A DNA stretch of 64,000 nt from Escherichia phage ETEC-TG, in sequence record OR786310.1; one strand, written 5' to 3'. Shown here in pieces: positions 2,698 through 62,241 of this stretch. Positions within the stretch are counted from its first letter, which is position 1; every line of letters begins with the position of its first letter. The notes below the pieces were generated by a model. The model had not been told where the DNA came from and did not search any database. It worked only from the letters and a program-made list of their open reading frames with translations. A program made the position numbers and the translations under genes.

Positions 2698-2946
2698 ATG
2701 TCTCTATTAGAAAAACACGTGTTTGAAGATGGTAACGGCAATGCAGTTTTTCTTTTCCATCCAGAAAAATACACATCTGAAAACAATGGTACAACTTCTA
2801 TTGTAATCACTAAAGATGTTAAAGTTATTGATTTCTTGGCTCTGATGCGAGAGATGGATCTTGAAATTAATACTTTTAACGCAGAAGCTTTGGTTGTTGC
2901 TCTTCTGGAAAAGAAAGATAGTGAAGAAGTAGCAGAATATGCTTAA
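2698..2946 (+). CDS. hypothetical protein (start moved to ATG at 2698)
   Basis: AGGAGGAACA RBS directly before ATG 2698; the track start at 2632 lacks an RBS. Confidence 0.45.
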   Translation: MSLLEKHVFEDGNGNAVFLFHPEKYTSENNGTTSIVITKDVKVIDFLALMREMDLEINTFNAEALVVALLEKKDSEEVAEYA

Positions 2947-2953
2947 ATAACTA

Positions 2954-2983
2954 TTGACAAACGTATCCTTCATATGTTAGGAT
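2954..2983 (+). promoter_or_regulatory. sigma70-like extended -10 promoter
   Basis: TTGACA - 18 nt - TGtTAGGAT; recurring motif aactaTTGACAa...TATGTTA. Confidence 0.5.
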
Positions 2984-3192
2984 ACGTTCATCAAGTGTGG
3001 TAACAGGGTCGTTGACTTTTGTTAAGAGGGGCTTGCACTGCGGTAGTGTTAGAGACTACTTCTTCAGAGGTTAGCTACCAAAGAGGAAAAGGAATAGTCT
3101 CGGCTCAAGAACTTTTACGCTGAAAGTTGGGCTTGGTCTTAGAGAATGTAGCGGTTCTCTACAATCGTCAGCGTCTCTGTTACCACATTTAC

Positions 3193-3264
3193 GGCCCTGT
3201 AGCTCAATGGGAGAGCTGTCGGCTCATAACCGATAGGTAGCTGGATCGAAACCAGCCAGGGCCA
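3193..3264 (+). tRNA. tRNA-Met or Ile2 (anticodon CAT)
   Basis: Hand-folded cloverleaf: acceptor GGCCCTG/CAGGGCC, anticodon loop CT-CAT-AA, T-loop ATCGAAA, encoded CCA. Confidence 0.7.
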
Positions 3265-3269
3265 CCAAC

Positions 3270-3341
3270 GTCTTTATGGTGTAATGGATAGCACAGGAGT
3301 CTTCTAAACTCTTAGTCAAGGTTCGATTCCTTGTAAAGACA
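3270..3341 (+). tRNA. tRNA-Arg (anticodon TCT)
   Basis: Acceptor GTCTTTA/TAAAGAC, anticodon loop CT-TCT-AA, T-loop TTCGATT, CCA follows. Confidence 0.7.
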
Positions 3342-3540
3342 CCAGAACATTTTAACATGAATTAGCTCAAGTGATTTGAACCCACTACTGATCATGGTGG
3401 CAGAGAATGAGGCAAGTATGTCAGACATTATAAACAAAGGCCACGGTTATATTAGAAGACATAAATGCTCGAAGAGCACCGTTCGTGGAGAACGGGGGTT
3501 GGTGGAGTCACCATTCATGGTAAAATGTTTTAAAAAACTA

Positions 3541-3570
3541 TTGACAACTAACATTATTTTATGTTAGATT
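3541..3570 (+). promoter_or_regulatory. sigma70-like extended -10 promoter inside the tRNA cluster
   Basis: TTGACA - 18 nt - TGtTAGATT. Confidence 0.5.
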
Positions 3571-3578
3571 ATAAGTAT

Positions 3579-3666
3579 GGAAGGGCAAATCGACGTGGCG
3601 ACGAAAACGGTCTTGAAAACCGCCGAGCTTGAAAGAGCCTTGGGAGTTCGACTCTCCCTCCTTCCG
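3579..3666 (+). tRNA. tRNA-Ser (anticodon TGA), class II
   Basis: Acceptor GGAAGGG/TCCTTCC, anticodon loop CT-TGA-AA, long variable arm, T-loop TTCGACT, CCA follows. Confidence 0.65.
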
Positions 3667-3673
3667 CCAGATT

Positions 3674-3756
3674 GGTAGATTGGTGAAATGGTAGCCACGA
3701 CAGTTTGCTAAACTGTAGTCGGAAACGGCGTGTAGGTTCGAGTCCTACATCTACCG
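3674..3756 (+). tRNA. tRNA-Ser (anticodon GCT), class II
   Basis: Acceptor GGTAGAT/ATCTACC, anticodon loop TT-GCT-AA, long variable arm, T-loop TTCGAGT, CCA follows. Confidence 0.65.
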
Positions 3757-3900
3757 CCAAGTTCTTTTTAATATAGCTTACTTTAGCAGAGTAAATCTTC
3801 GGCAAGTGGCGGTAACCACTTTACCGATAACTCATAGTTAGTGGTGTGAACACTGGCTATTTTAAAAAGAATTTAAAAAGAATTTAAATATTAGTATTTA

Positions 3901-3985
3901 GGTGAGTTAATTCCGTAGGGGTAGCGGGGCAGACTGTAAATCTGTTATCATTGCGATTCGGGTGGTTCGACTCCATCACTCACCA
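3901..3985 (+). tRNA. tRNA-Tyr (anticodon GTA), class II
   Basis: Acceptor GGTGAGT/ACTCACC, anticodon loop CT-GTA-AA, long variable arm, T-loop TTCGACT, CCA follows. Confidence 0.65.
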
Positions 3986-3994
3986 CCAAATTAA

Positions 3995-4077
3995 GATGAG
4001 TTGGCTGAATGGTTTAAGCGGCGGACTGTTAATCCGTGTTCGAAAGAACGATATAGGTTCAAATCCTATACTCATCG
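3995..4077 (+). tRNA. tRNA with class II scaffold and apparent GTT (Asn) anticodon; identity uncertain
   Basis: Acceptor GATGAGT/ACTCATC, anticodon stem GCGGA/TCCGT with loop CT-GTT-AA, 15-nt variable arm with GAAA hairpin, T-loop TTCAAAT, CCA follows. Confidence 0.5.
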
Positions 4078-4170
4078 CCAGAATTATGGACTTGTAGAGT
4101 TAAGGTAAACCCCCAGTCGCCAAGAGGCTTCTGGAATTGCAGGTATCGAATCCTGCCGAGTCCCAGCTTT

Positions 4171-4242
4171 GCTCCTATAGTATAATGGCTATTACAACGG
4201 TTTTGTAATCCGTGGATCTCTGTTCGATTCAGAGTGGGAGCA
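4171..4242 (+). tRNA. tRNA-Thr (anticodon TGT)
   Basis: Acceptor GCTCCTA/TGGGAGC, anticodon loop TT-TGT-AA, T-arm CTCTG-TTCGATT-CAGAG, CCA follows. Confidence 0.65.
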
Positions 4243-4522
4243 CCAACACAACATTAAGAGCACTGTGATTGATCGTCGTATCCTGTGCACAAGGTCTGTT
4301 CGAAAGACAGTGTTCTTAGTATTGTGTTGATCACACAAAAAAAGAGTTACCTGAAACTTGACCGGAGTAGGGTTGGATGGGGCAAAAGAAGAAGCGGCTC
4401 TCCCATCGACAGCAACGAAGAATAATATTTGACTTTGGTTTTGTATTATTTTAAGTTAGCTTACCGAACGTAGGGCTAGTCACCCAACGGGATACTCGTC
4501 ACTGTCCCACTCAATAAAACTA

Positions 4523-4552
4523 TTGACAACCAATAGTAAAATGTAGTATAGT
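4523..4552 (+). promoter_or_regulatory. sigma70-like promoter upstream of tRNA-Gly
   Basis: TTGACA - 18 nt - TATAGT. Confidence 0.5.
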
Positions 4553-4563
4553 AAAGATGTAGG

Positions 4564-4634
4564 GCGTTCTTGGTGTAGCGGTAGCATTCCGTCCTTCCAA
4601 GTCGGCGGCACGAGTTCGATCCTCGTAGAACGCT
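4564..4634 (+). tRNA. tRNA-Gly (anticodon TCC)
   Basis: Acceptor GCGTTCT/AGAACGC, anticodon loop CT-TCC-AA, T-arm ACGAG-TTCGATC-CTCGT, CCA follows. Confidence 0.65.
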
Positions 4635-4735
4635 CCAAATTATTTAATAAAGGGTTGCCAGAAAACTTTCTCTTTTACTCATGGTTTTCTCCTTCTCTCA
4701 CACCTCTTCTGGTTGCCCTTCATTAAATGATTTAT

Positions 4736-4808
4736 TGGTTTGTAGTGTAGTCCGGTAGCACACGACACTTTGACTGTCGTAGGTTTGGTTCAAATCCAGA
4801 CAGACCAG
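4736..4808 (+). tRNA. tRNA-Gln (anticodon TTG)
   Basis: Acceptor TGGTTTG/CAGACCA, anticodon stem CGACA/TGTCG with loop CT-TTG-AC, T-loop TTCAAAT, CCA follows. Confidence 0.65.
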
Positions 4809-4884
4809 CCATATAACAAAGGTGAGTCACTACCTCAAGTGTGAAGTTAAAAACGAGGAGCCGCCGAACACTTTCTTTTGCGGT

Positions 4885-4958
4885 GTACCTTTAGAATGTT
4901 ATGACGGAATTTAGCTCAGTTTGGTAGAGTGTACGCTTTGGGAGCGTATTGTCGCAGG
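4885..4958 (+). tRNA. tRNA-Pro (anticodon TGG)
   Basis: Acceptor CGGAATT/AATTCCG, anticodon stem TACGC/GCGTA with loop TT-TGG-GA, T-arm GCAGG-TTCGAAT-CCTGC, CCA follows. Confidence 0.7.
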
Positions 4959-4967
4959 TTCGAATCC

Positions 4968-5038
4968 TGCAATTCCGACCAATTAAATGTTTCGTAGTTC
5001 AATGGTAGAACCCACGACTGATAATCGTGAGATACAAG
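4968..5038 (+). tRNA. tRNA-Ile (anticodon GAT)
   Basis: Acceptor TGTTTCG/CGAAACA, anticodon stem CACGA/TCGTG with loop CT-GAT-AA, T-loop TTCGATT, CCA follows. Confidence 0.7.
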
Positions 5039-5119
5039 TTCGATTCTTGTCGAAACAACCAGTTTCCCGTTAGACTTACAGGATAAGAGTTCCACAATTT
5101 ATTGTGACGCTGGTTCGAA

Positions 5120-5195
5120 TCCAGCACGGGATACATAATAGCGGGATAGAGGAGTCTGGTCGTCCTCGCCAGTTTCATATGCTGGAGATCATTGG
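5120..5195 (+). tRNA. tRNA-Met or Ile2 (anticodon CAT), mismatched 1:72 pair
   Basis: Anticodon stem CCAGT/GCTGG with loop TT-CAT-AT, T-arm ATTGG-TTCAAAT-CCAAT, acceptor 3' TCCCGCC, CCA follows; position 1 (A) does not pair with 72 (C). Confidence 0.6.
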
Positions 5196-5333
5196 TTCAA
5201 ATCCAATTCCCGCCTCCAAATATCGCTTGCCAGCGGTATCTTTGAAGACCTTGCCTGGTTCCTTCTAAGATGGAGGGGTGCGACTCCTTAACGCACAATT
5301 ATAATAAAGCATTTCAAATTAACAGTATTTATT

Positions 5334-5357
5334 AGCCTCCTTATTGGAGGCTTTTTG
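5334..5357 (+). terminator. Rho-independent terminator closing the tRNA cluster
   Basis: Hairpin AGCCTCC-ttatt-GGAGGCT followed by TTTTTG. Confidence 0.6.
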
Positions 5358-5375
5358 CTATCTATTGAATAAAAC

Positions 5376-5404
5376 TTGACTTATTATTTTTTATATGTTA
5401 AGAT
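5376..5404 (+). promoter_or_regulatory. sigma70-like extended -10 promoter
   Basis: TTGACT - 17 nt - TGtTAAGAT, followed by TAGGAGGA RBS of the 5426 gene. Confidence 0.5.
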
Positions 5405-5425
5405 AAAGTTTAGGAGGATTTTATT

Positions 5426-5722
5426 ATGCCTAAACTAAAACGTGGTCGTGGAAGACCAACAGCCGAAATGCAACAGATTTACGCAATGGATGCGGCGCAA
5501 GCAAGTGTAAAAGAATTATTTGCAGAGCATTATTTAGAAGCTATGCGGTATATTGTTGAACTTGTTAATGATAAGGATGCAGCAAAACCTCTCCGCTTCC
5601 AAGCAGCTAAAGCTATTAAAGAGCAAGTAGAAGAATGGTTAGAAGAACATTATGAAGCTATGGAAGAAGAAACCCCTGCCGTGCAGAATACAGATGACGT
5701 TCCTAAAAAGATCGTAATCTAA
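5426..5722 (+). CDS. small DNA-binding protein with AT-hook-like KRGRGRP motif (possible small terminase or regulator)
   Basis: Strong RBS and promoter; N-terminal KRGRGRP; acidic helical remainder; sits upstream of the packaging genes. Confidence 0.4.
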   Translation: MPKLKRGRGRPTAEMQQIYAMDAAQASVKELFAEHYLEAMRYIVELVNDKDAAKPLRFQAAKAIKEQVEEWLEEHYEAMEEETPAVQNTDDVPKKIVI

Positions 5723-27883: not shown

Positions 27884-30037
27884 ATGAAACAAGCTATATT
27901 TACTGTCACGCGAGACAAGAGAGTAAATGCGAGTTCATTTAACTACACGACTGTTGACGGAACAGCAGTCGCTGGTAGAGATTATATTGCAAAATCGGGA
28001 ACACTTGTGTTCCCTGATGATGCTGATTCTGCTACTATTGTGGTTGAAGTATTTGAACGACCAAAGAACTCAATAGATCTTAACTTCTCCCTCCAAGTTT
28101 CAGGGATTAGTCAAAATAACATGATGGTTGAAACAACCATCAATTGTATTATAACTACTATCCAAGAAAATACTACTCCAATAACTTGGACTACAAAAGA
28201 CGTTAAAATGTTCTCTCCTATGTATTGGACAATAGATTCTCAAGCAACGGAAAGTTGTTCTATTGTATCTCATGGAGACTCTTTTACTGCAAGATTTGTA
28301 AACAGAACAACAGCAGGTTTGGCAGGGGTTATCTGGAGCACAGTTGACAAATATGACCATAAAGGTGTTGGGTATTTGCCTCACACAGATTTAAGTTCAG
28401 AGAAACTTTGGTTTAAAATGGAAATTAGTCAAAACATGCCAGGTTTTAAAGAAGAACCTTTGGTGCCGACTTTGACTGTAACTCTCCTGGATAAAAGTGT
28501 TCATTATGTCAGTTTAGGATTCTACGCTTCAGATATTTCAGAAGATGGTAAAACAGCCACAATAAAGTTAGATTTTGGTAATATCTTTTCTGGCCCTAAT
28601 AATGATATTCCTTTGGATATGAGTGCTGTAGATAATATTTTCTTCTCTTTGATTACAGCAAGGTATGAAAAAATAGAAGAGGTTGTACCTATTGACAGTC
28701 AAGAGGCTTGGTTTACTTTCACTCTTCTTGAACCTACTTCTGGTTACAGTATGATGAAAGTCAGCAACCTTGTCCAGCCTGAACATGATATTCGCATGTG
28801 CACATCTTATGATGATATGTATAACCTGACTCCAGAGAGAGTTATTTATAATACATATGCACTAGGTTATCGTGGAATGATTAACCATTACAACGGAATG
28901 TCTCACTATTATGAGTTCTCATGGAACGGAACATCTTGGGCTTTAAATAGATCTGTTTTCCTGAATCCGGCTACAGAAGCTTGGCTAAATAGTTTCCATT
29001 CTATAGCAAACGAGAAGGGCTACACGATAATGAACTCTTTAAGTTTTGAATTGATGAGCACAGTTTGTCCTGTAGAATGGGTCCAGCATGATTGGAACGA
29101 TGCTCTTGCAGCAACAGGGTATGAACCTCCTAGTTATGTGTTGTCTCCAACTATTGACGAAGGTATGGAATATTTGCAAAATGTTATTAACAAAATAGCA
29201 TCTATTTCGCAAGCTAATAATATTCCAGTTGTCATTCAAATTGGTGAGCCTTGGTGGTGGTATAATACAGCAAGTAAAATGCCTTGCATATATGATTACA
29301 CTACCAAACTGGCATTCAACACAGAAACAGGCTTATTTGCACAAGATGCAGGAACAATAGATAATTATAAAACAGGAACACCGTTTGACGAATACTATGC
29401 ATTTTTGTCTCGTAAACTAGGGTTAAGAGTTACAAAGTTTGCAACAGACACTAGAGCAACTTATCCAGGAGCTAAAGTAACATTGCTGCCATTCTTACCA
29501 TCAATTATCGGCAATGGTTTAATGGAGAAAGTTAACTTTCCGTCTGATTACTACATTCCTGAAGCTTTTGATTTTTATTGTTCAGAGTGTTACGACTGGC
29601 TTCTGGAAGGTAAAATGATGAAAGCATTTGATGCAATTACCATACCACATGAAAAATTAGGTTTTGAATATTCTGATATTCACTATCTTGCAGGTTTTGT
29701 TCCAGATGCTACTCTTGCACCTTTGTATGGCTTTGATCCTGAATCAAACTACCGCACGTATCTTTGGAAAATGATTATAGGTAACATAGTGTTGAACGCC
29801 AATAAGTTCAATGGACTTACACAATATATATGGGCCTATCCTCAAATAATGCACGATTCTATCACGGTAGTTAATTCTCAATCCCAAGTTTTCTATATGG
29901 GTAACGTGCCTTTGAACGCTTATTTACAGGATATCACTCTTAAACAGGTAAATGTTGAGATTGCCACCATAAGTGGAATTACATTAGCCACTAAATCTGG
30001 AGAAGATTTAGTAACAACACAAAAATTTTATATATAG
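27884..30037 (+). CDS. tail-associated protein with N-terminal Calx-beta-like domain
   Basis: N-terminus NYTTVDGTAVAGRDYIAKSGTLVF matches Calx-beta signature by eye. Confidence 0.4.
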   Translation: MKQAIFTVTRDKRVNASSFNYTTVDGTAVAGRDYIAKSGTLVFPDDADSATIVVEVFERPKNSIDLNFSLQVSGISQNNMMVETTINCIITTIQENTTPITWTTKDVKMFSPMYWTIDSQATESCSIVSHGDSFTARFVNRTTAGLAGVIWSTVDKYDHKGVGYLPHTDLSSEKLWFKMEISQNMPGFKEEPLVPTLTVTLLDKSVHYVSLGFYASDISEDGKTATIKLDFGNIFSGPNNDIPLDMSAVDNIFFSLITARYEKIEEVVPIDSQEAWFTFTLLEPTSGYSMMKVSNLVQPEHDIRMCTSYDDMYNLTPERVIYNTYALGYRGMINHYNGMSHYYEFSWNGTSWALNRSVFLNPATEAWLNSFHSIANEKGYTIMNSLSFELMSTVCPVEWVQHDWNDALAATGYEPPSYVLSPTIDEGMEYLQNVINKIASISQANNIPVVIQIGEPWWWYNTASKMPCIYDYTTKLAFNTETGLFAQDAGTIDNYKTGTPFDEYYAFLSRKLGLRVTKFATDTRATYPGAKVTLLPFLPSIIGNGLMEKVNFPSDYYIPEAFDFYCSECYDWLLEGKMMKAFDAITIPHEKLGFEYSDIHYLAGFVPDATLAPLYGFDPESNYRTYLWKMIIGNIVLNANKFNGLTQYIWAYPQIMHDSITVVNSQSQVFYMGNVPLNAYLQDITLKQVNVEIATISGITLATKSGEDLVTTQKFYI

Positions 30038-30045
30038 GAGTAAAA

Positions 30046-32298
30046 ATGTCAACTACAATTACTAATTTACCCGAAACATCAAAAGTTAATGGTTCTGATT
30101 ACCTGGTTTTAGACCAACCTGATAAGACTGTTAAAAGCACAGTTTCCAACTTTCTTACTGACACTGGGGTGGTTTTAGCCACCCAGTTGAAAGATACAGA
30201 TGGAGCTACCAAGTATCCAGAACTTCAGATTGCACGCTGGCGAGACGAGGGAGATATCAGAGGGTGGGGCACGGAAACAAACGGTGATGTTACCGAAGCA
30301 ATCATTGAGGCGGTAGCGGCGACAAGCGGCACTATCATTGTGCCACCTGGTGACTATGTTGCCACACCTACGCTGGCCGAAGTTCCGGCTGTGCTGAAAT
30401 TGCTGTCCCGCGCTGATTTTCGTGGCAGGTTGACCATTAATCTGCCAGCTGGGACGGTCAATCTGAACGAGCAGACAGTCATAAATTCTAACAGGAGTAA
30501 TCTGTGCAAGGTCATTGGCGTAGCGCTAAACACGAGCGTTACAGGGCTTGTTTCTGTAGCTGGGTCAAGCAAGCAATATTCGATAACTCTGTCCCTGGCA
30601 GATGCCTCGCAGGTGTCAGTCGGTGACTATGCCATCTTCAGGCACGATCTGACGGGAACTGGTTTTTTCCACATACACTGCGGGGGCTGGCGGGTAACGG
30701 CTGTGTCCGGCAATAACGTGACCGTGCTCAACACATGCGTCTTGGATTCATTCCCTTCGTCAACCGTTACCGGTGGATCAGTCTCCATTATCAAGTCCGT
30801 TCTGAAATACACCGGCTGTGATGGGATTAGACCGGAGGGCGGCGACTGTATCGGAATTATTGATAATGTCGCCATCGTGGGTGATTACAACCTTGCTACC
30901 GGCGCAGGGACAATCGGTGCTCACGGCGTAATATCCTCAACACCCGTAGTAGTCACCGACGCCGCCAACGCATCCAACAACGTAGCGAATATGGCGGCAG
31001 CGCTGGCCCTGGGACGAAATATTGCAATCAGTGCCTGGGGTGAGCAAGGGCTGGCAGTGTCGGGTCGCTCTGCGCTTGTGTGTAACTTCATCGCATCCTG
31101 TGCCAACCGTAAGCGTGGTATTTATGCGGAAGGTGCTCATATACGCGGGAAATTTATGATCGCCTCCGGAAACGGAGAGGACGGCATTATTTCAGATACC
31201 ACTGGATTTGTGCAGGCTGCATATGCCGTTTGCTCGGGTAACGGATTAAACGGGTTCTGGTCAACAAACCTCTCTCTTATTGCGGCGGCAAGGGGAGTGG
31301 CTTGCTGTAACAAAACAAATGGTGTGGAGGCAAGGGGGCAGACAAGGCTCGCATTTGATCTCGGCCTTTCCTACGGAAACGTTCTAAACGGTGTCAGCGC
31401 CTCTGATGGGGGCATGATTGACTTTGATGGCGGCATGTCAAGAGACAATCTCGTTGACGGGATCGCAGCGACATACAATGCAGTAGTTGACGCGAACAAC
31501 GCCTCCAGTACCACCAATGGTCGTTACGGTACTAACGTGACCTCCGCGTGCATTATCATTTCAGGGACTGGTACTATATCTGGGAATACAGGGGCGGATG
31601 TTCGTGATAACGGCAATGGGATGGTTGTCCGACCAGACGGCACGATCTACCCATTCACTGGGGTCGCACAGGGTAATCTGTCGCTAAGAAACACCGTCAG
31701 CGGCGCGGGGGTTGACATTGTTCCTACAAGTATAGGTGACTTAATTCTGAGCTTTAAAAACTCAGCAGGCGGAACGCTTAACCCGTTATACAACTTCAAA
31801 GCCGACGGTACTCAGTACCCTCAAAATGACGCGACGCAAAGCCTTGGGCGTGCCGCTAACCGATACAATGTCGGTTTCTTCGCTGGCGGAACACAGTCAA
31901 CTTCAGATGCCACACTTAAAGACCCTATCCGGGAGTTCAATCAGGCCGAACTTAATGCAGCAATGCGAATCGCAAAAATGCTGGGTTTCTGGACATGGCT
32001 GGATGATGCCGGAAAACGGCTTCATGCAGGGACAACAGTGCAAGCGGTACTGGAGGTGCTGGAAGAAGAGGGACTCGACTGGCGTAACTATGGTTTCATC
32101 GGATTTGATGAGTGGGATGATGAATATATCCCAGTAACCATTGAGGTAGATGGCGAAGTCGTTGAAACAGGGGAAACGAAATTAGTGCGTGAGGCTGGTT
32201 CTGTCTGGCAACTGCGCGATCAGGAATTTGACCGTTTCGTTATGCGTGGACTTTCTGAAAGGCTGAGTATTATAGAAAGTAAGCTGGATTTACTGTAA
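30046..32298 (+). CDS. tailspike / receptor-binding protein with C-terminal intramolecular chaperone domain
   Basis: Gly/Asn/Val-rich beta-helix-like repeats; STSDATLKDPIREF (S620-D621) resembles the S74 chaperone autocleavage motif; body is GC-rich relative to the genome. Confidence 0.5.
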   Translation: MSTTITNLPETSKVNGSDYLVLDQPDKTVKSTVSNFLTDTGVVLATQLKDTDGATKYPELQIARWRDEGDIRGWGTETNGDVTEAIIEAVAATSGTIIVPPGDYVATPTLAEVPAVLKLLSRADFRGRLTINLPAGTVNLNEQTVINSNRSNLCKVIGVALNTSVTGLVSVAGSSKQYSITLSLADASQVSVGDYAIFRHDLTGTGFFHIHCGGWRVTAVSGNNVTVLNTCVLDSFPSSTVTGGSVSIIKSVLKYTGCDGIRPEGGDCIGIIDNVAIVGDYNLATGAGTIGAHGVISSTPVVVTDAANASNNVANMAAALALGRNIAISAWGEQGLAVSGRSALVCNFIASCANRKRGIYAEGAHIRGKFMIASGNGEDGIISDTTGFVQAAYAVCSGNGLNGFWSTNLSLIAAARGVACCNKTNGVEARGQTRLAFDLGLSYGNVLNGVSASDGGMIDFDGGMSRDNLVDGIAATYNAVVDANNASSTTNGRYGTNVTSACIIISGTGTISGNTGADVRDNGNGMVVRPDGTIYPFTGVAQGNLSLRNTVSGAGVDIVPTSIGDLILSFKNSAGGTLNPLYNFKADGTQYPQNDATQSLGRAANRYNVGFFAGGTQSTSDATLKDPIREFNQAELNAAMRIAKMLGFWTWLDDAGKRLHAGTTVQAVLEVLEEEGLDWRNYGFIGFDEWDDEYIPVTIEVDGEVVETGETKLVREAGSVWQLRDQEFDRFVMRGLSERLSIIESKLDLL

Positions 32299-36691: not shown

Positions 36692-39600
36692 ATGGCAACA
36701 TTCCCAACATATCCAGCAACGTCTCTCGAACAGGGCGTAGACCTGGTTATTTTCTCATCTAACCAACTCCATGATGTTATTAATGGAAGTGCTACAGAGA
36801 GTATTGAAACAGAATCAGGGTTGATACCAACCCTGAGAAAAGCCCTTGTTGACAACTTTTTCTTTAAAAGCCCATTGGATTGGGCGCAAGGCACAAACGA
36901 AACAGTTTTTAACCAACTTCGTTATTTCCAGAATGGAGTATTGAGCGGTTATTACTATGCTCCTAACGCTACATTGGTTAACCCAATCCCTATGCAAGGG
37001 ACTCCAGTAGGAGATAACAACTGGGTATTGTGGGGACTGAAAACAGAACAATTAGCAACAGAAGTCACCCCGTGGGTATACTCTGGTGCAACTGGTTATG
37101 AAACAGTAATTAGTCCTCCTTACATCTTTGATAGTGCTATTGTTACGATCAATGGTGTTATTCAGGTTCTGGGGGAAGCTTTCCGTATAGAAGACAGTAA
37201 GATCATCTTATCTGAACCTTTGGGACACGATCCTGCAACAGGACTGCCAAACAAGCTTTTTGCTTATATTGGTAAAATCGTAGCTTCAGCAGATACAGAT
37301 CCTAATCTAGAGAACCGTCTTGTTAGTTTAGAAACAAAAACGGAAGAACTAACAGAAAGCATGGATAAAGTCCCTCTGCAAGCTATTGCTCGTAAGTATG
37401 GTTTGTTAGATGATGAGGTGGCTTACGCAACAGCAGGTCAATCGTTAACAGGGATTAAAGCTCTGTATGATCCGGTAGCACAGTCTTCCTACACATTACC
37501 TCCTAACATCACAGGAACTTTAACATCCTTATCTGTTTCTGGAGTAATGACTTATTCTGGAGGATCTGTAGACCTTTCTGCACTGGCTGTTGAGCGTGGA
37601 CAGTTTGTTCATTTGCCTACAAGCTTTGGTAATAACGTAACTCTGACAGCTAAAAATCAGACGATTGGACGTGGTGCTGGTCGTTATCGTTGGGCTGGAA
37701 GTTTACCAAAAAGTATTTTGGCCTCTGATACATTGGAGACAAGCGGAGGATTAGGTCCAAATGCATGGGTTCTGACTAATACAGAAGGACTGTTAACCCC
37801 TCGTGGTGGAACATACAACGATCTATTCGATGTTGTCTACTTGTCAGAATTTGCTAACAATACAACTACCTATACCACACCAGAAGCAGCTTTCCAGGCG
37901 GCACTGTTAGCAGCAAAAGCTTCGAAAAGCAAGATTCTCGATGCTTACGGTTGCGACATGACTTTCACGACAAGCTCTTTTGATATTCAAGATATCACTT
38001 TGCGTGGTGGTGTGTTCCGTGGTCAACGCGACTATCGTGTGCAGAATGCTACAGTAGAAGGCACAACTTTCCGTAACTCTCGTGTTATGTATTGGGGTGG
38101 TGCTGTGCGCATGTTCGATTGTTTGTGGGACGGTGCTCCTCGCGCAGGTCAAGTTGGTAGCTTGGTATTCCAAGGCAACCCAATATCAGGTACTTTTGAA
38201 ATTGATAATTGTACTTTTAAAAACGGGTTATATGGCATTCTTCAACAAGGAACAGGGGAACCAGTAACACGCGGTGTCTTCCGTAACCTTACCTTCATGG
38301 ACATGCAAGGTGATGCAATAGAACTGAACGTCATCAATAAACATTATGACGATGGTTGTGTGATTGAGAATATTTACCTGTCTAATATCGATGGGACTAA
38401 CGCTCCTATTCCTCTGTCCAACTGGGGTATCGGTATCGGTGTAGCTGGTAAAGGACCATATGGTTACGGAATCCCTGATGATCAATATTGTAAGAACATT
38501 ACAATTCGTAACGTTTTTGCAAAACGTTGTCGTCAGATTGTCCACGTAGAAGTTGGTCGTAATATCTCTATCGAAAACATTCATGGCGATCCAGATCAAA
38601 CCGTATCTGTTGGGACAGGTTTGGCAACTGGCGCAGTTGTAATGTATGGAAGTAAAGACTTTACGATTGATGGTGTTTATGGAGAGCCTAAAACAGACGG
38701 TAGCACACTTGCAAGTAATATCCGTATGATTTACTTGGAGTGGGGAACTAACGCAGTTCTGGATGAAGAGGGTAATCCGGTAGTTCCGGCACAAGGCAGA
38801 CCTTCAAACCCATGCTTTAACTATTCTGTTCGTAACATTCACACCAAAACTGGGCGTGTTTTTGCGGGAGTTTCCGCTGGGCCAGGTTATGAAAACAGAG
38901 TTAGCTTTGAAAATATTCGTTGCGCTGCCTTGCAGTTGTTCGGTATAGCTTCTTGGCTTTCAATGTCTAACATCACCTGTAATATCTTCGATTGTGTTGG
39001 TCAACCTGAATCTGGTCCAGGGACATTTTATGATGGATTCTTCCGTAGAGAAAAATCTGTTCTTGAAATGGTTAACGTAAACTGTTACCCAGATGGCAAG
39101 ACGATGGTTACTGGTCGTCCACAGTGGAGCCGTTGCCGTTACTCGGATATTCATCGTGTCAACTGTAATGTTGAAGCTAATATGTATACCAATATCGCAG
39201 GTGGTATTGGAGCTATTGTAGGGACAACGGGCAAAGTTTATTACTTAGAGCCTAATCCTAGTCGAAACATTGATGGAATGCATTTCCCAACAGGGAAAGA
39301 GTTTGACAAAGGGGATATGATAGTCAAGGCGGATAATACGTTCTTCCTTGTAACAACAAGTGGGGCATATATTCCAGATATCCCAGCTTTCGGTATTCGA
39401 GCTACACAGGCAGGAGATACCTTCCTGACACAGAACTTGACTCCTAACGGGACAGCAACAAATGCTTCTTGGTTGTATCATTACCCTCTGTCAGCAGGGA
39501 CACGTATCCGTATTCCTGGCGCTGGTGTAGGTGGAGCAGATTTGGACACAGTTATTACTCGTGCACCTTATCAAGATAATGATACGTGGACTAACCCAGT

Positions 39601-39745
39601 TAAAATAGACATTGCAGATCCAATTGTAACGCCTACAAGTGCTGGAGTTAGAATTAAAACCATACCTAATGATTCCAGTAATGTTTCTGTAGGTAATACT
39701 GCGGTTATTCGCCCAACGCCAGTAGTAGATGTGCCAACAACCTAA
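36692..39745 (+). CDS. tailspike / tail fibre protein (large)
   Basis: 1017 aa, beta-helix-like composition in the tail fibre region. Confidence 0.45.
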   Translation: MATFPTYPATSLEQGVDLVIFSSNQLHDVINGSATESIETESGLIPTLRKALVDNFFFKSPLDWAQGTNETVFNQLRYFQNGVLSGYYYAPNATLVNPIPMQGTPVGDNNWVLWGLKTEQLATEVTPWVYSGATGYETVISPPYIFDSAIVTINGVIQVLGEAFRIEDSKIILSEPLGHDPATGLPNKLFAYIGKIVASADTDPNLENRLVSLETKTEELTESMDKVPLQAIARKYGLLDDEVAYATAGQSLTGIKALYDPVAQSSYTLPPNITGTLTSLSVSGVMTYSGGSVDLSALAVERGQFVHLPTSFGNNVTLTAKNQTIGRGAGRYRWAGSLPKSILASDTLETSGGLGPNAWVLTNTEGLLTPRGGTYNDLFDVVYLSEFANNTTTYTTPEAAFQAALLAAKASKSKILDAYGCDMTFTTSSFDIQDITLRGGVFRGQRDYRVQNATVEGTTFRNSRVMYWGGAVRMFDCLWDGAPRAGQVGSLVFQGNPISGTFEIDNCTFKNGLYGILQQGTGEPVTRGVFRNLTFMDMQGDAIELNVINKHYDDGCVIENIYLSNIDGTNAPIPLSNWGIGIGVAGKGPYGYGIPDDQYCKNITIRNVFAKRCRQIVHVEVGRNISIENIHGDPDQTVSVGTGLATGAVVMYGSKDFTIDGVYGEPKTDGSTLASNIRMIYLEWGTNAVLDEEGNPVVPAQGRPSNPCFNYSVRNIHTKTGRVFAGVSAGPGYENRVSFENIRCAALQLFGIASWLSMSNITCNIFDCVGQPESGPGTFYDGFFRREKSVLEMVNVNCYPDGKTMVTGRPQWSRCRYSDIHRVNCNVEANMYTNIAGGIGAIVGTTGKVYYLEPNPSRNIDGMHFPTGKEFDKGDMIVKADNTFFLVTTSGAYIPDIPAFGIRATQAGDTFLTQNLTPNGTATNASWLYHYPLSAGTRIRIPGAGVGGADLDTVITRAPYQDNDTWTNPVKIDIADPIVTPTSAGVRIKTIPNDSSNVSVGNTAVIRPTPVVDVPTT

Positions 39746-45943: not shown

Positions 45944-46537
45944 TTACCAAGGAATATCCTCTTCTTCCAATCTGGTATCTACTTGAGGTGGACGTGGAAC
46001 CTTAACCTCTTTCACAAAACGAAGATATGGGAAACGTGTAGCAATTTTAATAACGTGTTTGGCATCTTCTCTAACGTCTTTGTGCAAGAAGCAGATCCCT
46101 GTTTCCAAGGTTGTTTCAAAATCTTTAGAATAATAACAATCCTTCCCATCAAATGCAGCCTGGCAGATGGACAGATCGAACTCATTTAGAAAGGTTGTCA
46201 TTACGCTTGGTTCCATAATCATAAGGTTGCAAAGCTGACCATCACGTTCAAACTCAAAAACGTGTTTAAGACCAGTAACACCTTCATAATTGTCAGAAGC
46301 CTCTTTGTTTCCTAGTTTACGAATATTGGTTCCCATTAAAGCAGATGCAATTAATCCTTGTATTTGTTCTTCAGTCCGATGTGCAGGAAGGGATGTATAG
46401 AAATCAAGATCACGTCCAGCAATATCAAGAATACGCCAATCACGAACAGCACCGCCAGCCAAGACAGAATTAGGATCAGCGATCTTTAATACGGTAAGAA
46501 TTTCTTTGGCAATATTGATTTGTTTTGATTTAGTCAT
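45944..46537 (-). CDS. minimal pol-beta-type nucleotidyltransferase (CCA-adding-enzyme-like head motif)
   Basis: N-terminal LAGGAVRDWRILDIAGRDLDF resembles GGAVRD...DxD of class II tRNA nucleotidyltransferases; 197 aa is far shorter than canonical enzymes. Confidence 0.4.
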   Translation of the reverse strand: MTKSKQINIAKEILTVLKIADPNSVLAGGAVRDWRILDIAGRDLDFYTSLPAHRTEEQIQGLIASALMGTNIRKLGNKEASDNYEGVTGLKHVFEFERDGQLCNLMIMEPSVMTTFLNEFDLSICQAAFDGKDCYYSKDFETTLETGICFLHKDVREDAKHVIKIATRFPYLRFVKEVKVPRPPQVDTRLEEEDIPW

Positions 46538-60934: not shown

Positions 60935-61132
60935 TTACTCCTCCTCCTCATTGAAGTCAATATCTGCAAGGAGTTCGAATTTACGGAAGTTACGACAACC
61001 TTCATAAATATAACAATCACGACAAACTGCTAGAACACTTGGGGGATATATGCCTCCCATCGGTGCGAATCGTTTTTCGTCATCATAACGGACACCAATG
61101 TCTTCATCAATTATATAGATACGGATTCTCAT
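60935..61132 (-). CDS. small Cys-rich protein
   Basis: CRDCYIYEGC motif; acidic C-terminus. Confidence 0.3.
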   Translation of the reverse strand: MRIRIYIIDEDIGVRYDDEKRFAPMGGIYPPSVLAVCRDCYIYEGCRNFRKFELLADIDFNEEEE

Positions 61133-62241
61133 TTACCAAGCCCTCGTTTCACAGCAGCTACCATCCCGTCTTCCAGAGATTGAACTTCATTAATATAATC
61201 AACACGAGCAGCACGGGCTTCCGTATTGATGCGGTTAGTTTCTTCCAGCATCTTAACCAAGTTTTCCTGATCGTGACGCAGAGTTTCAATATCCAACACT
61301 TGACGGTTAGCCAGTGCTGCTGCTTCGATCTGATTCTGTGTGGCAAGATCGCTACCCAGTTTAATTGCCAGGTTAAATTCATCAAGAACGTTATTCTGCG
61401 TCTCTGCTGCTTTCATTTGACGTAAGCTCTCGATATACATTGAGAAGTTAGCAGAGTAAGCAGGAATAACATTATTTACTATGTTACGCGCAGATCGCAT
61501 TAAGCTTGCAGAAACTTTTTGCATACCTTGTACACGCGGTCCCATTTGGACACACAGTAGGCGCAATGCTTTTAAATCTGCAATACGAATCTCCAGAAGA
61601 TCCAAAGTATCTCGGATCACTTGTCGCTGTTCTACTGCATCTTCTGGAAGAGCAGCCAAAGCTTGTTCTTCTTTTTCATAGGTTGCTGTTAGAAGCTGCA
61701 TATCTCGGTTCAAACTTGCAGCATATTGTCCAATAGCTTGATGTAGCTTTTCAAGATATACCAAGGAATCTTCTTCTTTGCGAATATCCATTTGAAGGTT
61801 CTTTACCAACTCTTCAATACGGTTATTAACATTATCAAACTCCCCGAACAGGTCTTCTTTCATACCCATAACTTTTTTAATGAGTTTAGTAATACCCTTG
61901 CTTTGTTTAATAGAGTTTGGATCAAGTTGTTTTGCCTGTTTAATCAAAGCTGTAAGTCGTTCACTCATCTGATCGCCTTGATTACTACGTTGATGTTTTA
62001 ACACCTCGGCATTCAAGGAACGCAAGGTTGTTCCTGCCTCTGCCCCAATCTCTTCAATCTCTTGTCGGGTCATAGAAGGCAAAACTGGAACTTCTTGCGG
62101 TGCCGCTGGTGCATAAACAGGACTGGCATCTAACACGCTTGGAGCGAATACAGATTTACTTGCATCTGTTGTTGCAGCGAATACACTCATTTCAGACTTC
62201 TTCTGACCACCAGTAGCTGCTTTTAAAAATGGACTTGTCAT
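61129..62241 (-). CDS. TelA/KlaB-like helical protein (tentative)
   Basis: 370 aa, predominantly helical, same operon as TerD and vWA proteins; family assignment from size, composition and context only. Confidence 0.35.
   Translation of the reverse strand: MTSPFLKAATGGQKKSEMSVFAATTDASKSVFAPSVLDASPVYAPAAPQEVPVLPSMTRQEIEEIGAEAGTTLRSLNAEVLKHQRSNQGDQMSERLTALIKQAKQLDPNSIKQSKGITKLIKKVMGMKEDLFGEFDNVNNRIEELVKNLQMDIRKEEDSLVYLEKLHQAIGQYAASLNRDMQLLTATYEKEEQALAALPEDAVEQRQVIRDTLDLLEIRIADLKALRLLCVQMGPRVQGMQKVSASLMRSARNIVNNVIPAYSANFSMYIESLRQMKAAETQNNVLDEFNLAIKLGSDLATQNQIEAAALANRQVLDIETLRHDQENLVKMLEETNRINTEARAARVDYINEVQSLEDGMVAAVKRGLGK

Follow-up and report, generated by a model that had tools for sequence, protein, structure and literature searches.

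The window analysed here is a 64,000-nucleotide (nt) stretch of Escherichia phage ETEC-TG (sequence record OR786310.1), which by sequence comparison belongs to Phapecoctavirus, the phAPEC8-like E. coli myoviruses of the Stephanstirmvirinae. At positions 2949–5360 it carries a cluster of twelve tRNA genes on the + strand. The tRNAs fill about 40% of this region, and a check of the spacers for open reading frames (ORFs) returned no convincing or conserved ORF in the rest. Interleaved with the genes are predicted promoters, a terminator, two tRNA-like elements and a series of spacers. Comparison across phage groups indicates that S1, S2, S3, S6 and TL1 are under structural constraint. The features are listed below with folding z-scores computed against dinucleotide shuffles; every tRNA gene encodes its CCA and, unless other sources are named, is supported by ARAGORN, by Rfam family RF00005 and by the GenBank record of Escherichia phage vB_EcoM_ASO2A.

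2949–2983, + strand: predicted promoter P1 (site 2954–2983), AACTATTGACA, 18-nt spacer, TGtTAGGAT; predicted start near 2990
2993–3191, + strand: S1, predicted structured leader RNA of about 200 nt (z = −5.0; no Rfam match)
3193–3267, + strand: tRNA (CAT) of the Ile2/lysidine type, reading AUA (supported in addition by similarity to ileZ)
3270–3344, + strand: tRNA-Arg (TCT)
3345–3533, + strand: S2, predicted multi-branched RNA of about 188 nt with a 17-bp closing stem (z = −3.6)
3536–3570, + strand: predicted internal promoter P2 (site 3541–3570); predicted start about 2 nt before tRNA-Ser(TGA)
3579–3669, + strand: tRNA-Ser (TGA) with a divergent D-arm (relaxed ARAGORN, ASO2A record)
3674–3759, + strand: tRNA-Ser (GCT)
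3760–3876, + strand: S3, predicted 117-nt four-way junction of a 17-bp closing stem and three hairpins (z = −3.7)
3901–3988, + strand: tRNA-Tyr (GTA) (RF00005, relaxed ARAGORN, ASO2A record)
3995–4080, + strand: tRNA-Asn (GTT)
4088–4164, + strand: TL1, tRNA-like RNA that has acceptor, D and T arms but lacks CCA; a variable hairpin replaces the 7-nt anticodon loop
4171–4245, + strand: tRNA-Thr (TGT)
4246–4327, + strand: S5a, predicted long hairpin with a stem of about 20 bp, directly after tRNA-Thr (z = −3.0)
4518–4552, + strand: predicted internal promoter P3 (site 4523–4552), TTGACA, 18-nt spacer, TATAGT; predicted start about 5 nt before tRNA-Gly
4564–4637, + strand: tRNA-Gly (TCC)
4638–4732, + strand: S6, predicted hairpin with a closing stem of about 24 bp and a conserved CU-rich loop of about 40 nt (z = −5.4 to −5.7)
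4736–4811, + strand: tRNA-Gln (TTG)
4812–4904, + strand: S7, unstructured spacer (z = 0.0)
4905–4981, + strand: tRNA-Pro (TGG)
4988–5061, + strand: tRNA-Ile (GAT)
5065–5132, + strand: TL2, tRNA-like element with a canonical T arm, a 6-bp acceptor stem and no CCA (z = −3.6)
5140–5218, + strand: tRNA-Met (CAT) with non-initiator features
5334–5360, + strand: predicted intrinsic terminator, a 7-bp GC-rich stem (5334–5352) followed by a T-run, closing the cluster; annotated in ASO2A

An initial annotation of the window had described twelve tRNAs on one strand, all confident members with encoded CCA ends. Both points are confirmed: the + strand carries all twelve between 3193 and 5218, their anticodons are those of the ASO2A record, and in each the 7-nt anticodon loop contains U33 and the 3′ CCA is encoded. 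The cluster end given at 5195 is corrected to 5218, where the last tRNA ends. With default settings ARAGORN calls ten tRNAs. Eleven of the twelve exceed the RF00005 gathering score of 29 bits (39–72 bits), the model adding Tyr-GTA (3901–3985) at 39 bits. The divergent Ser-TGA falls below this threshold and gives a sub-threshold tRNA-Sec match (37.4 bits, cut-off 47); it is also called by relaxed ARAGORN in the window and by tRNAscan-SE in ASO2A, and its homologue in the phi92 record is flagged as pseudo. The two CAT genes that had been noted are both present, the first being Ile-CAT according to the tRNAscan call in ASO2A, that is, of the lysidine type that reads AUA. It shares 81% identity with Stx-phage ileZ, and some T4-like phages carry a gene that matches it at about 95%.

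The tRNA cluster itself is already known and annotated in dozens of near-identical phage genomes. Its DNA is 99.3% identical to ASO2A (2601 nt compared), 97.1% identical to phAPEC8 over 2601 nt and 97–99% identical to ESCO5, tuntematon and many others; 66 phage records span at least 80% of the 2.6-kb cluster region. The ASO2A record gives the same list of twelve anticodons in the same order, and the twelve tRNAs, their order and the terminator are shared by phAPEC8, ASO2A, ESCO5 and tuntematon, in keeping with membership of Phapecoctavirus. Compared with these records the window differs in nothing of substance. It carries an 11-nt tandem duplication (AAAGAATTTAA) at 3877–3900, between S3 and tRNA-Tyr, that is not found in ASO2A. 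As to RNAs, public Phapecoctavirus records annotate the tRNAs only (some miss Ser-TGA or Tyr), and S1, S2, S3, S6 and TL1 are unannotated.

The structured spacers are each closed by a predicted end-to-end duplex of 17–24 bp (22 bp in S1, 20 bp in S5a, 23–24 bp in S6 and 17 bp in S2 and S3). BLAST searches with the tRNAs masked revealed that several are conserved, unannotated, in other phage groups. Copies of S3 are found in 173 phage records, belonging to Phapecoctavirus, Justusliebigvirus, some rV5-like Vequintavirus and about 25 T5-like Tequintavirus, and none of these records annotates it as an RNA (in locus extracts of relatives it lies at L003 2450–2617, L005 3001–3118 and L006 3476–3609). 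In an alignment of 11 sequences, 99.5% of the cells at predicted pairs are paired, compared with 40–56% when the partners are slid, and five pairs are double-changed. A covariance model of S3 scores 130 bits on the + strand and 44 bits on the − strand, with one copy per genome. This model detected no distant copies in T5, Seunavirus and T4-like loci, and a scan of IMG/VR with the S3 motif returned four loci only.

S3 always lies just 5′ of tRNA-Tyr, with a Lys tRNA in between in Justusliebigvirus. In the T5-like phage HildyBeyeler it has an extended −10 promoter on its 5′ side and the first base of tRNA-Tyr on its 3′ side, and thus would be a transcribed leader. This promoter (P14a in T5) and tRNA-Tyr are present in 275 T5-like records, most of which, T5 included, have a different 96-nt leader at the S3 site that is also stem-closed (z = −3.25). 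Because T5-like phages thus swap two stem-closed leaders behind one promoter, S3 appears to be a discrete, exchangeable leader cassette.

Nearly all of the leader between the predicted P1 start and the site where RNase P would cut the first tRNA is taken up by S1, and its 22-bp closing stem would pair the transcript start with the bases just before that site. The fold is kept relative to phiWec181 (81% identity) through eight compensatory double changes; S1 is confined to Phapecoctavirus. Homologues of S2, about 70% identical, occur within Seunavirus tRNA clusters, where in FENT2 the element directly abuts tRNA-Leu. In the S2 alignment 16 of 63 pairs are compensatory, 93% of the cells are paired versus 40–46% when slid, and all slide and shuffle controls are passed. 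S6 retains a 23–24-bp stem of different sequence in Justusliebigvirus, together with a conserved loop. This loop is exactly complementary to GAAGGAGAAAACCAUGAG, a perfect Shine-Dalgarno/ribosome-binding site followed by AUG, for which the window holds one other near-match, with three mismatches. Read on the + strand, the S6 loop may be an anti-ribosome-binding-site RNA; alternatively, it may be where a minus-strand ORF begins (12 amino acids (aa); 8 aa in phi92; length not conserved).

Among the remaining spacers, S5a (4255–4330) has an 82%-identical 76-nt match in the Klebsiella prophage ST16-OXA48phi5.2. The approximately 190 nt that follow, S5b, are unstructured (z = −0.3) and non-coding, with small ORFs that are not conserved in phiWec181. 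As neither S7 nor S5b is significantly structured, both are treated as filler or relics; S7 (4820–4900) is 85% identical to the sequence directly 3′ of rIII in some T4-like phages (teqdroes, ime09; L002 2501–2576) and is probably a recombination relic. Two candidate coding sequences, a 63-aa ORF with a TTG start in S2 and a 25-aa basic ORF in S5b, were rejected: the S5b frame is broken by a shift in phiWec181, and the compensatory changes in S2 are of the RNA type. Rfam searched at E ≤ 10 over 2900–5450 gave no family for any spacer. Sub-threshold matches to RyhB, MicA and rimP (5289–5393) fall on the terminator region, and the sole Y RNA match (YrlA, RF02553; 21.1 bits, cut-off 69) covers the T arm of tRNA-Pro and not a spacer. 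Identities as Y RNA, 6S or T-box were rejected, there being no model match and the architectures being unfitting.

TL1 and TL2 are called as odd tRNAs by relaxed ARAGORN, but were not filed as tRNAs because both fail the 7-nt anticodon loop and the CCA. TL1 is kept in phi92-type phages, and its acceptor and T stems show compensatory changes. It directly follows tRNA-Asn, as RNA3 does in T5 (NC_005859 33877–33949; L022 11878–11950, − strand) and in HildyBeyeler (Asn 3542–3627, RNA3 3630–3702). Of the 19 pairs in a six-sequence alignment of TL1 and RNA3, eight are double-changed; the D region GTAGAGTTAA..AAACC does not vary among the sequences, which also conserve the T-loop motif ATCRAAT. When the complete set of T5 stable RNAs was compared with the window by blastn there was no match, so that the relationship is recognized by alignment and synteny only; on these grounds TL1 is identified as a homologue of the T5 ‘RNA3, putative tRNA-like RNA’. 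The two differ at the 3′ end, where T5 RNA3 terminates in ...GATACCA, whereas TL1 lacks CCA and is followed by CAG in the window and by AAG in KKE7M. TL2 has a loop of 4–6 nt where the anticodon loop is expected and may be a decayed tRNA. It is found only in Phapecoctavirus.

The initial annotation had further proposed an operon with at least three internal sigma70-like promoters and a terminal terminator. Promoters were sought as −35/−10 hexamers at 16–18 nt spacing whose positions are kept in relatives, and consensus and conservation together support an operon with internal promoters and a terminal terminator. Three sites were found on the + strand, of which only P2 and P3 are internal; P1 (2954–2983) lies upstream of the originally delimited region, 3193–5195. 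A generic promoter count is no higher than in shuffles (6 found versus 5.3 expected). All three sites, however, contain the 11-mer AACTATTGACA, of which no further exact copy exists in the 64 kb; they combine a perfect TTGACA with an 18-nt spacer, and two of the three have an extended −10 TG. Every site marks the 5′ border of a tRNA sub-cluster. All three positions are kept in the divergent phiWec181, and in phi92 those before Ser-TGA and Gly, with the same hexamers before Ser-TGA. The predicted terminator was located at 5334–5352 plus its T-run, at the end of the cluster as had been claimed. In T5 the homologous promoter before tRNA-Tyr, P14a, is annotated (NC_005859), and a T5-like tRNA-Tyr promoter is reported to be active (PMC11555353).

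On this basis we propose that three near-identical strong promoters would let host sigma70 RNA polymerase transcribe the cluster in three units. The unit starting at P1 would comprise S1, Ile2, Arg and S2; that at P2 SerUGA, SerGCU, S3, Tyr, Asn, TL1, Thr and S5; and that at P3 Gly, S6, Gln, S7, Pro, IleGAU, TL2, Met and the terminator. By analogy with established E. coli tRNA biology, the 5′ ends would be generated by RNase P, and the 3′ ends by endonuclease cuts followed by exonuclease trimming that halts at the encoded CCA. Where two tRNAs are only 2–6 nt apart they may, as in T4, be made as dimeric precursors. S1, S2, S3, S6 and TL1 would be set free when the tRNAs flanking them are processed. 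The likeliest role of the spacers would then be that of self-folding processing or insulator modules, whose long closing duplexes, of RNase III-substrate length, may draw neighbouring tRNA ends together and shield tRNA folding from spacer sequence. Cleavage of these duplexes by RNase III is speculative, as is any function of the spacer RNAs in trans, but some of them probably persist as stable small RNAs like those of T5.

The anticodons had been described as biased towards codons that are common in the phage and rare in an enteric host, and the codon comparison bears this out. Codon frequencies were taken from 63 long, non-overlapping ORFs (18,245 codons) of the window and from the annotated genes of a 50-kb E. 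coli K-12 segment; the ten highest phage/host codon ratios belong to AGA (3.7-fold), ACA (3.7-fold), GGA (3.5-fold), ATA (2.75-fold), AGG, TAT, CCT, AGT, TCT and AAT. Phage tRNAs read every one of them (hypergeometric p = 3e-5), and covered codons are over-represented relative to uncovered ones (Mann-Whitney p = 7e-4). The GC content at third codon positions is 0.31 in the phage, whose overall GC is 39%, and 0.50 in the host. Between the structural and the replication module, usage per thousand differs for ATA (13.7 versus 6.0), ACA (36.3 versus 18.5) and GGA (22.5 versus 14.2). A codon-usage rationale for the tRNA set is thus supported, and the same codon-compensation argument was published in 2013 for the related phage rV5 (PMC3606486). 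The tRNAs would mainly add decoders for AGA/AGG, AUA, ACA, GGA, UAU, AAU, CCU, UCU and AGU, and the need for such decoders would be greatest in the highly expressed structural genes.

Downstream on the + strand lie the terminase, portal, major head, tail sheath and tail-fibre genes; as these follow directly, the cluster heads the structural module in the same orientation. From about 44.6 kb on, the − strand encodes an SSB-like protein, a nucleotidyltransferase-like protein, DNA polymerase A and a primase/helicase. The nucleotidyltransferase-like gene (45944–46537), which the initial annotation had mentioned alongside the tRNAs, exists as an ORF of 197 aa on the − strand with a PHROG ‘nucleotidyltransferase’ match at 6.5e-63. 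It contains motif A, GGAVRD...DLD (LAGGAVRDWRILDIAGRDLDFYT, residues 26–48), of class II CCA-adding/poly(A) polymerase enzymes. A motif-B-like FDLSICQAA is also present. The ORF scores 13.8 bits against Pfam PF01743 (PolyA_pol; cut-off 23) and 12.6 against NCBIfam TIGR02692 (cut-off 438.8), and searches gave no sequence relative in the PDB and none above threshold in Pfam or NCBIfam. The protein is half the size of a CCA-adding enzyme (about 400 aa) and lacks the tRNA-binding neck, body and tail domains. A link to the tRNAs is not supported: the gene lies about 40 kb away on the other strand, in the replication module, and carries motif A only. Because all twelve tRNAs encode CCA, they need no CCA-adding activity, and the only tie of the protein to the cluster would be a possible role in CCA repair. 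It could be a minimal nucleotidyltransferase of the replication module.

The region bears marks of exchange between phages. Relative to phiWec181, S1–S3 differ by about 20%, whereas the sequence from TL1 to S7 is 98–100% identical, and the S3–Tyr segment is 96% identical to rV5-like phages. The tRNA cluster of phi92 contains a truncated rIII-like ORF (L006 4600–4646 and 4797–4925); together with the match of S7 to the 3′ flank of rIII, this indicates past exchange between phage groups. Close relatives carry insertions within the cluster, a hotspot for insertion and exchange: Klebsiella phage ZCKP1 (38450–41750) has about 700 bp with an XRE/HigA-like antitoxin gene, Escherichia phage nepoznato (7959–10798) an HNH endonuclease, and KKE7M (L012 1609–1982) about 370 extra bases after S3.

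Among known systems, T5 (NC_005859) is the closest in layout. Several sigma70 promoters there drive tRNAs interleaved with non-tRNA and tRNA-like RNAs, eight of which are annotated as ‘stable RNA with unknown functions’ or tRNA-like RNAs (RNAI, RNAIII, RNAIV, RNA1, RNA2, RNA2H, RNA3 and RNAX). Both phages show the order promoter, stem-closed leader, tRNA, with RNAX before Arg and the 96-nt leader before Tyr in T5, and S1 and S3 here. In contrast to the window, T5 belongs to the Demerecviridae, has about 24 tRNAs, many small ORFs and homing endonucleases, and itself lacks S3. The T4 cluster consists of eight tRNAs and the stable RNAs C and D, made through dimeric precursors. It resembles the window in its compactness, closely spaced tRNA pairs and non-tRNA stable RNAs and has an associated homing endonuclease, SegB, for which exchange of tRNA regions is documented (PMC2330249). 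The tRNA repertoire of T4 differs, however, and its tRNA region shows no sequence similarity to the window, the only T4-like match being S7 near rIII. The ileZ-argN-argO genes of Stx-converting lambdoid phages likewise place the Ile2(CAU) decoder of AUA directly before the Arg(UCU) decoder of AGA, but these phages are temperate and carry only three tRNAs, upstream of stx.

Taken together, we favour, with a probability of about 0.7, the interpretation that 2949–5360 is a conserved Phapecoctavirus tRNA cluster with three-unit transcription that serves codon supply and whose spacers are processing or insulator modules. Several points weigh against it. For the host, codon usage comes from a single 50-kb stretch of K-12 with many ribosomal and cryptic gsp genes, and not from the full genome; the codon sets of Gln-UUG, Pro-UGG, Ile-GAU and Ser-GCU are not over-used relative to the host (ratios 0.7–1.06); and TTA, CTA, TTT and GAT are over-used without a matching phage tRNA, while the sister genus Justusliebigvirus, unlike the window, has Leu-TAA, Leu-TAG, Phe and Lys tRNAs. 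Promoter use, RNase III cleavage and RNA stability in this phage are inferred, and the near-identity of TL1, S5a, S6 and S7 to phiWec181 reflects mosaic recombination and is not in itself a sign of constraint. Phage tRNAs can, moreover, be selected for immune evasion instead (PMC10264068, PMC11555353, PMC11464382). In that case the set would be kept mainly to replenish tRNAs that are cleaved by anticodon nucleases or depleted, with the codon match secondary. There are precedents: a T5-like tRNA-Tyr under its own strong promoter neutralizes retron-Eco7, whose PtuAB acts on tRNA-Tyr, and tRNA-Lys neutralizes PrrC170 (PMC11555353); T5 tRNA-Lys neutralizes PARIS (PMC11464382); and the general hypothesis of phage tRNAs acting against host tRNases, naming colicins E5 and D, has been laid out (PMC10264068). 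The S3–tRNA-Tyr module of the window is homologous to that of T5-like phages. Colicin E5 targets Tyr and Asn tRNAs and colicin D an Arg tRNA, and the set holds Tyr, Asn and Arg. tRNA-Lys, which is named as the PrrC target (PMC11555353) and serves T5 against PARIS (PMC11464382), is missing from it. The five phage tRNAs compared (Tyr, Gly, Thr, Gln and Met) are 58–68% identical to their E. coli counterparts; since the Tyr and Gly anticodon loops equal those of E. coli and the Thr, Gln and Met loops differ only at positions 32/38, the signature of resistance by loop mutation (PMC10264068) is equivocal and not evident. Statistically, the strongest signal is how well the set matches over-used codons, including AUA and AGA, which are not known as targets of any E. 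coli anticodon nuclease. We consider a mainly anti-defence role of the set rather unlikely; defence buffering is plausible, by homology, for tRNA-Tyr only, as a supply-type rescue.

The spacers themselves allow other explanations. The inter-tRNA sequences may be non-functional, consisting of recombination scars, decayed tRNAs (TL1, TL2) and leftovers of deleted genes that are cut out and degraded. The absence of significant structure in S7 and S5b would agree with this, as would the rIII-related sequences in S7 and in the phi92 cluster, the mosaic nature of a region in which relatives carry insertions, and the resemblance of TL2 to a degraded tRNA confined to a single genus. However, the helices of S1, S2, S3 and TL1 are kept by compensatory double changes across genera or families, the S6 stem persists despite its different sequence with an invariant loop, S3 holds a constant place relative to tRNA-Tyr across four lineages, and T5 homologues or analogues are annotated as stable RNAs; we therefore regard this explanation as unlikely. 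Alternatively, the structured RNAs could be trans-acting effectors, with TL1 or S3 as decoys for nucleases that act on the tRNA body and S6 as an anti-Shine-Dalgarno RNA sequestering ribosome-binding sites. That TL1 keeps its acceptor, D and T arms but no anticodon loop, that the conserved S6 loop complements GAAGGAGAAAACCAUGAG exactly and that T5-like phages exchange S3 as a cassette located between a conserved promoter and tRNA-Tyr would all be in line with such a role. It is a proposal drawn from the shape of the sequences, the sole other near-match of the S6 complement in the window has three mismatches and no Rfam family matches, and we judge it improbable. A similarly doubtful variant combines codon supply with a mosaic of mobile non-coding RNA cassettes that have functions of their own. 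Within it, S3 could boost or protect tRNA-Tyr output against tRNA-Tyr-targeting immunity such as retron-Eco7, TL1 and T5 RNA3 could be anticodon-less decoys for tRNA-body nucleases, and S6 could be an anti-Shine-Dalgarno RNA. A search for S3 in the construct sequences of the retron-Eco7 paper, made with the ‘promoter’ fragment of phage SP15 in view, did not find it in the text-form supplements.

Elsewhere in the window, a GC-rich island at 30001–32000 (0.51 versus about 0.39 elsewhere) overlaps the C-terminal tail-spike/fibre-like part of the ORF at 30046–32298 and is probably a horizontally exchanged receptor-binding domain. The ORFs at 61129–62241 (− strand) and 36692–39745 (+ strand) have PHROG matches to ‘tellurite resistance’ and to the ‘colanic acid degradation’ tail-spike family, respectively; such auxiliary and depolymerase genes are usual in this phage group.

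Within the favoured interpretation of a codon-supplying cluster with processing or insulator spacers, novelty is confined to the conserved, unannotated structured RNAs interleaved with the tRNAs, which are further examples of a known but unexplained kind. The DNA between the tRNAs has been treated as empty in every record examined, yet appears to hold at least five constrained RNA elements. S3 is common to phAPEC8-like, phi92-like, rV5-like and some T5-like phages, and TL1 links the cluster to T5 ‘RNA3’. In some T5-like phages, the ‘strong promoter’ fragments used in experiments that set tRNAs against retrons may include a structured leader, which bears on their interpretation. Alignments, covariation and natural cassette swaps provide a comparative handle on the role of stable non-tRNA RNAs in phage tRNA regions. 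If they do have functions of their own, the 50-year-old T4 and T5 ‘stable RNAs of unknown function’ would join a wider class of phage RNAs in counter-defence or translation control that can be analysed comparably.

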